A DNA stretch of 64,000 bases. Origin: Thermoplasmata archaeon. Lineage in GTDB: Archaea; Thermoplasmatota; Thermoplasmata; Lutacidiplasmatales; UBA184. The notes under the pieces are model-generated. The model made no database searches, was not told the DNA's origin, and saw only the letters and a list, made by a program, of their open reading frames with translations. This document shows, one piece after another, positions 22,797 through 61,708 of the stretch. A program made the translations under genes and the position numbers. Position 1 is the first letter of the stretch. Every line of letters starts with the position of its first letter. The stretch lies in NCBI GenBank assembly GCA_028864975.1, contig JAGWLG010000006.1:1-64000 (forward strand), in the 5' to 3' direction.

Positions 22797-23513
22797 ATGT
22801 CCCGACGGCCCCGCCCGACCCCCCCCGGAGCTCAAGTAGCGGCCCGTACTCGTCAGACCGTGCGCAGGGTCCTTCTCCTGGTCCACCGGGTCCCGGTCGA
22901 CGGGGCGTTCACGTTGAACGACCTCGCGGGCACGGGAGGGCGGCTGGACGAGGTCGCCTCGGTCGTGGCCGCGACCTTCCTCGTCTCGAACGGGCTTCGA
23001 CGCGACTGCGAGCTCACGCTCCTTCTCTCGCAGGACCCCGCCCGGGCGCGGAAGGTGCGGATGGAGGGTCGACGGCTCAAGTTCCTGAACCCCGACGAGC
23101 GTTCGACCGCTGCGCTCCTCAAGAACGCGCTGGTCCGCAGCTGGACCCGTCCCACCGACGAGATGGAGACCACCCCAGGGATCTTCGTGGGGCCCTGCCG
23201 GCCGGAGGAGGACCTGAAGGCATTCCTGGGCCGACCGGGTACCTTCTGGGCGACGGAGTCGGGCGAGCCCTTGCGGGCCGCCTCCCTCGAGCCGGGGGAG
23301 ACGGGTTTCGTCCTCAGCGACCCTTGGGACCCGACCGACCAGGAACGGGGGCTTCTCGAGGCGTCCGGGGTCCCCCGTATCGCGGTCGGACCGCGCTCTC
23401 TCCGCTCCTCCCAGTGTGTGGTGCTCTTCCAGAACGAGCTCGATCTTCGAGAGGCTGCTCAGAAGGCGAGCGGACCGTCCGCCGCCGGGGCTTCCACGCC
23501 CTTAGGCGGATAG
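22797..23513 (+). CDS. trmY: tRNA (pseudouridine54-N1)-methyltransferase (SPOUT)
   Basis: FTLNDLAGTGGRLD, FLVSNGLRRD, LNPDERSTAALL, FVLSD, VGPRSL..SQCVV. Confidence 0.88.
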   Translation: MSRRPRPTPPGAQVAARTRQTVRRVLLLVHRVPVDGAFTLNDLAGTGGRLDEVASVVAATFLVSNGLRRDCELTLLLSQDPARARKVRMEGRRLKFLNPDERSTAALLKNALVRSWTRPTDEMETTPGIFVGPCRPEEDLKAFLGRPGTFWATESGEPLRAASLEPGETGFVLSDPWDPTDQERGLLEASGVPRIAVGPRSLRSSQCVVLFQNELDLREAAQKASGPSAAGASTPLGG

Positions 23514-61569: not shown

Positions 61570-61674
61570 CGCCCCGATCGGGAGTCTCCGAAGGCGGTTA
61601 GGACCGCCGCCCTCCTTTGAACCCGAGCCCACGGCTCGACAGACCGTGATCCTAGACCACTAGACTATCGGGGC
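61570..61674 (-). tRNA. tRNA-Asp(GUC) with 32-nt intron at 59/60 (intron 61584-61615)
   Basis: Mature fold GCCCCGA TA GTCT AGTGGTCT AGGAT C ACGGT CTGTCGA GCCGT GGGC TCGGG TTCAAA^T CCCGA TCGGGGC G; all four stems pair, discriminator G73, CCA not encoded. Confidence 0.93.
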
Positions 61675-61700
61675 GCGAGGCCGCGCAGCCTCACGGACCA

Positions 61701-61708
61701 TAATAAGG
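61701..61708 (-). promoter_or_regulatory. TATA box of tRNA-Asp
   Basis: Minus strand CCTTATTA about 27 nt upstream of tRNA G1. Confidence 0.6.

Follow-up and report, generated by a model that had tools for sequence, protein, structure and literature searches.

The window analysed here, a 64,000-nucleotide stretch (positions 1 to 64,000 of contig JAGWLG010000006.1, assembly GCA_028864975.1), comes from an uncultured soil archaeon of the Thermoplasmata, whose assembly comprises 3.61 Mb in 124 contigs, with 67% G+C and a completeness of about 90%. At 3.6 Mb, this assembly lies far above those of its family relatives (1.3–3.0 Mb, mostly about 2 Mb), and its contamination is estimated at 1.9%. The reverse strand of the window carries a tRNA-Asp(GUC) gene with an insert in its T loop, between positions 59 and 60 (Table 1). 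When this insert is taken out, a perfect tRNA-Asp(gtc) cloverleaf results, called at 74 nt by ARAGORN. As read from the sequence, exon 1 has the anticodon loop CTGTCGA, a G10·U25 pair and a variable region of 4 nt, and the identity features of tRNA-Asp (GUC anticodon, G73 discriminator and G10·U25) are all present. The open reading frames flanking the gene gave no Pfam match, and an AT-rich box occurs at a similar upstream position in all 18 relatives shown.

Table 1 Features of the tRNA-Asp(GUC) locus, and one further gene of the window given for context.
Feature	Position in window	Strand	Remark
pre-tRNA-Asp(GUC), 105 nt; mature form 73 nt	61570..61674	-	CCA not encoded
Exon 1 (positions 1–59), 59 nt: acceptor 5′ strand, D arm, anticodon arm, T-stem 5′ strand, first six T-loop bases	61616..61674	-	3′ end TTCAAA; nearly invariant across the family
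Anticodon GTC	61640-61638	-	
Intron between positions 59 and 60, 32 nt	61584..61615	-	
Exon 2, 14 nt: U60, T-stem 3′ strand (61582-61578), acceptor 3′ strand (61577-61571), discriminator G (61570)	61570..61583	-	
Outer helix h: T-stem 5′ strand (49–53)	61622..61626	-	pairs with 61582-61578; 100% paired in the family
Central helix H, 5′ strand: U54 U55 C56 A57	61618..61621	-	92.1% paired across the family
5′ bulge: A58, A59, intron nucleotide 1 (G)	61615..61617	-	predicted cut between 61616 and 61615; read from the sequence
Intron stem h′, 5′ arm	61607..61614	-	all 8 pairs vary on both sides
Intron hairpin loop, 9 nt	61598..61606	-	
Intron stem h′, 3′ arm	61590..61597	-	
Central helix H, 3′ strand: GGAG	61586..61589	-	pairs with U54–C56; first G opposite A57
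3′ bulge: intron A and C, U60	61583..61585	-	predicted cut between 61584 and 61583
AT-rich TATA-like box	61700..61706	-	26–32 nt 5′ of the mature end; genome 67% G+C
PF04013 (TrmY-family) RNA methyltransferase gene	22863..23453	+	context only

The layout of the insert is that of a standard 37/38 intron transferred to the T arm. Both flanking helices of the hBHBh′ form are present, the outer one being the 5-bp T stem and the inner one an 8-bp stem, GAGGGCGG/CCGCCTTC, which includes one G·U, is the minimum-free-energy helix and closes a 9-nt loop. Between them, U54–A57 face the intron bases GGAG as U·G, U-A, C-G and A·G, giving three pairs and one mismatch; the bulge spacing is exactly 3-4-3, and each predicted cut falls after the second bulge nucleotide. 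The T arm and the anticodon arm share one design, a 5-bp stem with a 7-nt loop, and 59/60 in the former therefore corresponds geometrically to 37/38 in the latter. The A57·G mismatch adjoins the 5′ bulge and keeps the motif from being textbook-strict; with bulges, flanking helices and 3-4-3 spacing all intact, it is nearly strict. This reading agrees with the preliminary description of the locus in the coordinates and sequence of the insert, its 8-bp inner stem, the bulge-helix-bulge (BHB) spacing and the three central pairs out of four.

In minimum-free-energy folds by ViennaRNA, the 4-bp central helix stays unpaired in the Asp gene, where a symmetric 7x7 internal loop takes its place, and in nearly all relatives; such folding was dropped as a criterion for the motif, and conservation and covariation were used instead. 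A C/D-box or other role for the intron was rejected by eye, as the element has 32 nt and is without box motifs.

A BLAST tally, which includes the unpublished genomes G028, G046 and G058, places the gene in 60 of 60 genomes of the same family. The insert was read at exactly 59/60 in all seven genera, with a length of 29–34 nt (loci L019 and L030 among these readings are from unpublished genomes). The exons are nearly invariant and the introns almost wholly different, with 37 distinct forms; conserved within the introns are solely the four bases opposite U54–A57 and the two bases before U60. Covariation was tested on 35 distinct family sequences, unpublished genomes being left out, against 500 shuffles. 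The structure described above is paired in 92.6% of cells as opposed to 83.7% in the shuffles, and its covariation score is 0.266 as opposed to 0.126; for neither value did any of the 500 shuffles reach the observed one. Sliding the partners by 1–3 columns brought pairing down to 29–59%. All eight pairs of the intron stem change on both sides in a compensatory manner across the 35 sequences, and position 57 with its intron partner is G-C in 23 of them, A-U in one and A·G in 11. The central helix has four pairs in the 25 G57-type sequences of the family, and three pairs plus the A57·G mismatch in the Asp gene of the window. The D-stem pair in columns 10/26 is G·U in 35/35 sequences. The pairing pattern of the family is far beyond chance and, together with the spliced cloverleaf, bears out the original identification of a tRNA-Asp(GUC) with a BHB intron at 59/60.

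We place the junction at 59/60 because the predicted spliced T arm is identical to that of intronless homologues, namely the 73-nt tRNA-Asp genes of other Thermoplasmata families (L116–L118) and of the sister family f23. The same conservation bears on the question of whether the insert leaves the transcript at all. A mature tRNA that retains it as an extra T-loop hairpin is highly improbable: the hairpin is stable, but the conserved intron bases are those that the splice motif needs and not those that a retained arm would need, and the same layout recurs in nine different tRNAs. Retention would also abolish the T-loop/D-loop elbow, which every elongator tRNA requires.

Search for a second tRNA with a GUC anticodon, which the preliminary description had named as a sign of a pseudogene or an integration scar, found none in the ~90%-complete assembly, and the second BLAST match in relatives is a tRNA-Glu and not another Asp gene. 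The locus is very probably a functional tRNA-Asp(GUC) gene, and probably the only one of this archaeon; the gene is real and conserved, and very probably essential. That it should instead be a pseudogene, or a T loop scarred by integration of a mobile element, with tRNA-Asp supplied by another gene, is hardly credible, even though the 3′ halves of tRNAs are frequent integration targets and the assembly is about 90% complete. Such a lesion is difficult to reconcile with an insert at the same site in 7/7 genera, flanked by invariant exons and marked by compensatory changes, with the conservation of the promoter-like box, or with the lack of any repeat or second genomic copy of the insert.

The intron sequence does not recur elsewhere in the genome, contrary to what had been considered as a sign of intron transposition. 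The Asp and His introns resemble each other weakly, with a z of about 3 against mononucleotide shuffles among 36 pairs compared. Separately, in another Thermoplasmata family, an intronless tRNA-Asp (L116, G092:C87) is followed, 78 nt downstream of the gene, by a perfect copy, in direct orientation, of its 14 terminal nucleotides, from U60 to the discriminator. This repeat resembles the trace left at an attachment site when an element inserts into the T loop or 3′ end, and it covers the region that is split by the 59/60 intron in the family of the window.

The Rfam tRNA model scores the Asp locus at 20.2 bits, with a cut-off of 29, and ARAGORN, run with default settings on the unspliced DNA, calls an incorrect 90-nt gene at 61584-61673. 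The latter call is an artefact in which the intron hairpin is taken as the T arm and a mismatched acceptor stem is tolerated. The earlier warning that standard pipelines may miss this gene is therefore true of the two tools run. Whole-genome ARAGORN with introns allowed returned about 70 extra calls, mostly false and with kilobase-long 'introns', and was not used.

At the level of the class or order, BLAST is blind to the difference between interrupted and intact genes, and loci were read directly. The Asp genes are intact in families f10, f11, f18 and f21 of the class, and intronless in the sister family f23, where one genome has an insert of ~15 nt after the anticodon. In family f24, represented by two AT-rich genomes, tRNA-Asp has an anticodon-loop intron plus a 10–14 nt insert at 59/60 that is without an inner helix. 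These 59/60 inserts, 14 nt in L153 (G117:C20) and 10 nt in L154 (G119:C18), are A/T-rich, and in them TTCA pairs with TGAA to give a loop-type hBH motif.

Within the genome itself, a survey of the other tRNAs, an idea already raised in the preliminary description, detected the 59/60 intron in at least eight tRNA genes besides Asp: Ser GCU, Ser GGA, Lys UUU, Gly UCC, Arg UCG, His GUG, Ala GGC and Asn GUU. The T-loop scan covered position 59/60 and kept candidates that ARAGORN accepted after splicing; first, looser scans had produced hundreds of chance matches, which were discarded unless the spliced form was so accepted. Three candidates (G000:C90:2245-2408, C104:73814-73966 and C115:35950-36075) passed both steps with extra long inserts or an odd anticodon, and may be multi-intron tRNAs or false positives. 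Two tRNAs with long variable arms, at G000:C10:2785-2897 and G000:C83:15780-15883, have inserts near 32/33, upstream of the anticodon; the first is labelled Trp(cca) by ARAGORN, a label at odds with a class II tRNA.

The A·G apposition of the Asp intron has counterparts in this genome. In the 37/38 intron of tRNA-Leu(UAA) (G000:C104:69856-69972), read by eye, CUUA lies opposite GAAG with the A·G beside the 5′ bulge. An exon A (A35 or A57) in position four of the central helix faces an intron G in six cases, Asp among them; Ala GGC, with a U, is the only exception. Besides Asp, the introns with a G are those of Leu UAA and of a tRNA-Met (G000:C6:72946-73050), both at 37/38, and the T-loop introns of His (C93:18312-18418), Ser GCU (C32:146480-146596) and Ser GGA (C104:121071-121188). 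A purine-purine apposition beside the 5′ bulge seems to be tolerated or even preferred.

Turning to the processing enzymes, matches to PF01974 are confined to one open reading frame of the genome (G000:C53), whose 374-aa product (protein P0001) carries two stretches each of PF02778 and PF01974, that is, two tandem units of the splicing endonuclease EndA. The protein can be aligned along its whole length with the A. fulgidus EndA (1r0v, 305 aa), residues 44–355 falling on residues 17–292 of the latter; candidate catalytic residues Y311, H319 and K350 of the C-terminal unit align with the A. fulgidus motif and have no counterpart in the N-terminal unit. Judged by its sequence, this EndA is of the α'2 type. 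Its best sequence match in the PDB is 5x89, the fused EndA of Methanopyrus kandleri. Among family genomes with a completeness of 93% or more (a set including the unpublished G028 and G046), 29/30 have exactly one two-unit EndA gene, counted as two adjacent domain matches. Searching with the EndA protein led to relatives that are uncultured Thermoplasmata, known from metagenomes of soil, peat and sediment. The genome also encodes RtcB (G000:C104:51240-52547), and the window does encode a TrmY-family methyltransferase, as first described (Table 1).

Hirata et al. sited the broad-specificity loop of archaeal EndA enzymes at E174-G176 of the A. fulgidus protein (PMC3488258). At this site, where the CSL or ASL insertions lie, the EndA studied here has GSKIGERL against GSEKGDLV of A. 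fulgidus, at the same length, and its His loop is shorter by three residues. Neither the CSL/ASL site nor the His loop of this EndA contains an insertion, and the same is true of the EndAs of families f1, f23 and f24, the last of which is also a two-unit protein. A Lys-rich loop in the N-terminal structural unit (residues 128–141 of P0001, PRGGTPSKTPSKWW) falls in a gap relative to the A. fulgidus EndA; it is kept in the EndAs of f1, f23, f24 and a further two families, and the 288–289-aa EndAs of two other Thermoplasmata genomes lack it.

These features are relevant to the suggestion, made in the preliminary description, that the organism has a relaxed-specificity EndA. Enzymes of the α4 and α'2 types need the strict 3-4-3 hBHBh′ motif, and relaxed motifs need (αβ)2 or ε2 enzymes (PMC3239211, PMC5829648); the α'2 enzyme of A. 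fulgidus cuts strict motifs (PMC3239211, PMC3488258). Euryarchaeota with α4 or α'2 enzymes have few intron-containing tRNA genes, with one intron each, at 37/38 (PMC4090602), and introns at other positions go with broad-specificity enzymes (PMC5829648). On that view, the intron could be real and yet require, and have, a relaxed-specificity endonuclease such as those of Crenarchaeota or ARMAN-2. We regard this as rather unlikely. It would account for the A57·G mismatch, kept in 11/12 distinct A57-type Asp sequences of the family and recurring in the His, Ser GCU, Ser GGA, Leu UAA and Met introns of the genome, as well as for the loop-type 10–14-nt inserts of f24 that are without an inner helix; but the genome has a single EndA of α'2 architecture, with no CSL/ASL or catalytic His-loop insertion, and the suggestion is not supported by this repertoire and a nearly strict motif. 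With its two bulges, its two flanking helices and the 3-4-3 spacing retained, the Asp motif does not call for a relaxed enzyme; an ordinary enzyme that reads shape would be enough.

It is highly likely, in our assessment, that this is a functional tRNA-Asp(GUC) gene with a protein-spliced intron at 59/60, cut by an ordinary two-unit EndA that reads shape and not position. We infer the cleavage, the exact junction, the enzyme responsible and the order of the maturation steps as follows. In the precursor, the T arm would take the part of the anticodon arm, with the 5-bp T stem as the outer helix, U54–A57 pairing with the four intron bases that precede the last two, and the 8-bp hairpin as the inner helix. 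The single α'2 EndA would recognise this bulge-helix-bulge irrespective of its position and cut both 3-nt bulges after their second base, and RtcB would then ligate the exons, restoring the TTCAAAT loop. The T loop could pack against the D loop, and undergo modification, only once splicing is complete. Modification after splicing, which had been proposed for TrmY, is a reasonable order because the central helix of the precursor ties up U54–A57.

Published α'2 enzymes barely cut loop-type hBH substrates. Nonetheless, it is conceivable, if doubtful, that the α'2 EndA of this Thermoplasmata order processes imperfect and even loop-type motifs without the known specificity loops; the A·G-mismatched helices and the 10–14-nt hBH-like inserts at 59/60 in f24 may be the signs of such a capacity. 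A candidate for a third route to broad specificity is the conserved PRGGxPxKTPSKxW loop of the EndA N-terminal unit. If true, an α'2 enzyme that cuts relaxed motifs would break the rule that only (αβ)2 and ε2 enzymes cut relaxed non-canonical introns, and would point to such a third route.

The kind of intron is already known from ARMAN-2 and Thermoproteales, and in ARMAN-2 also at 59/60. In ARMAN-2 (Candidatus Micrarchaeum acidiphilum), 59/60 introns are spliced, with a strict hBHBh′ motif in pre-tRNA-Pro(GGG) and a 13-nt hBH intron in pre-tRNA-Cys(GCA) (PMC3239211, PMC3488258). As in ARMAN-2, the intron studied here enters the T loop at 59/60, uses the T stem as its outer helix and would be spliced by protein, and the Pro(GGG) precursor likewise has both bulges. 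ARMAN-2, however, belongs to the DPANN and has a three-unit ε2 EndA with a specificity loop (ASL), whereas here a member of the Thermoplasmata has a two-unit α'2 EndA without ASL, a longer intron (32 nt) and an A·G mismatch. Lineages with (αβ)2 EndA likewise have many tRNA genes per genome with BHB-type introns outside the anticodon loop; they differ in having the Crenarchaea-specific loop and many relaxed motifs, whereas the T-loop introns found here are all at 59/60, the only site scanned. Methanopyrus kandleri, also a euryarchaeon, is similar in that some of its introns are non-canonical and its EndA has no specificity loop, but its enzyme is a heterotetramer and the non-canonical intron is found in the D loop (PMC5829648). 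The closest likeness in architecture is to the 37/38 introns of Euryarchaeota, such as the genome's own tRNA-Leu(UAA), which has the identical stem, 4-base pairing, bulges and hairpin, and A·G beside the 5′ bulge; in contrast to these, the host arm is the T arm, and U54, U55, C56 and A57/58 would be masked until splicing. Searches of the literature turned up no report of T-loop introns from Thermoplasmata.

Since standard finders miss the gene or set its bounds wrongly, assessments of genome quality and codon usage would wrongly report missing tRNAs, among them Asp, Asn, His and others, in widespread soil and peat archaea. The wider interest lies in the mismatch between the position of the intron and the type of enzyme expected for such positions. 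In this family, an ordinary-looking α'2 enzyme coexists with many T-loop introns, likely because position 59/60 reproduces the standard geometry, and this makes it possible to test whether the position of introns goes with the type of enzyme, as has been proposed.
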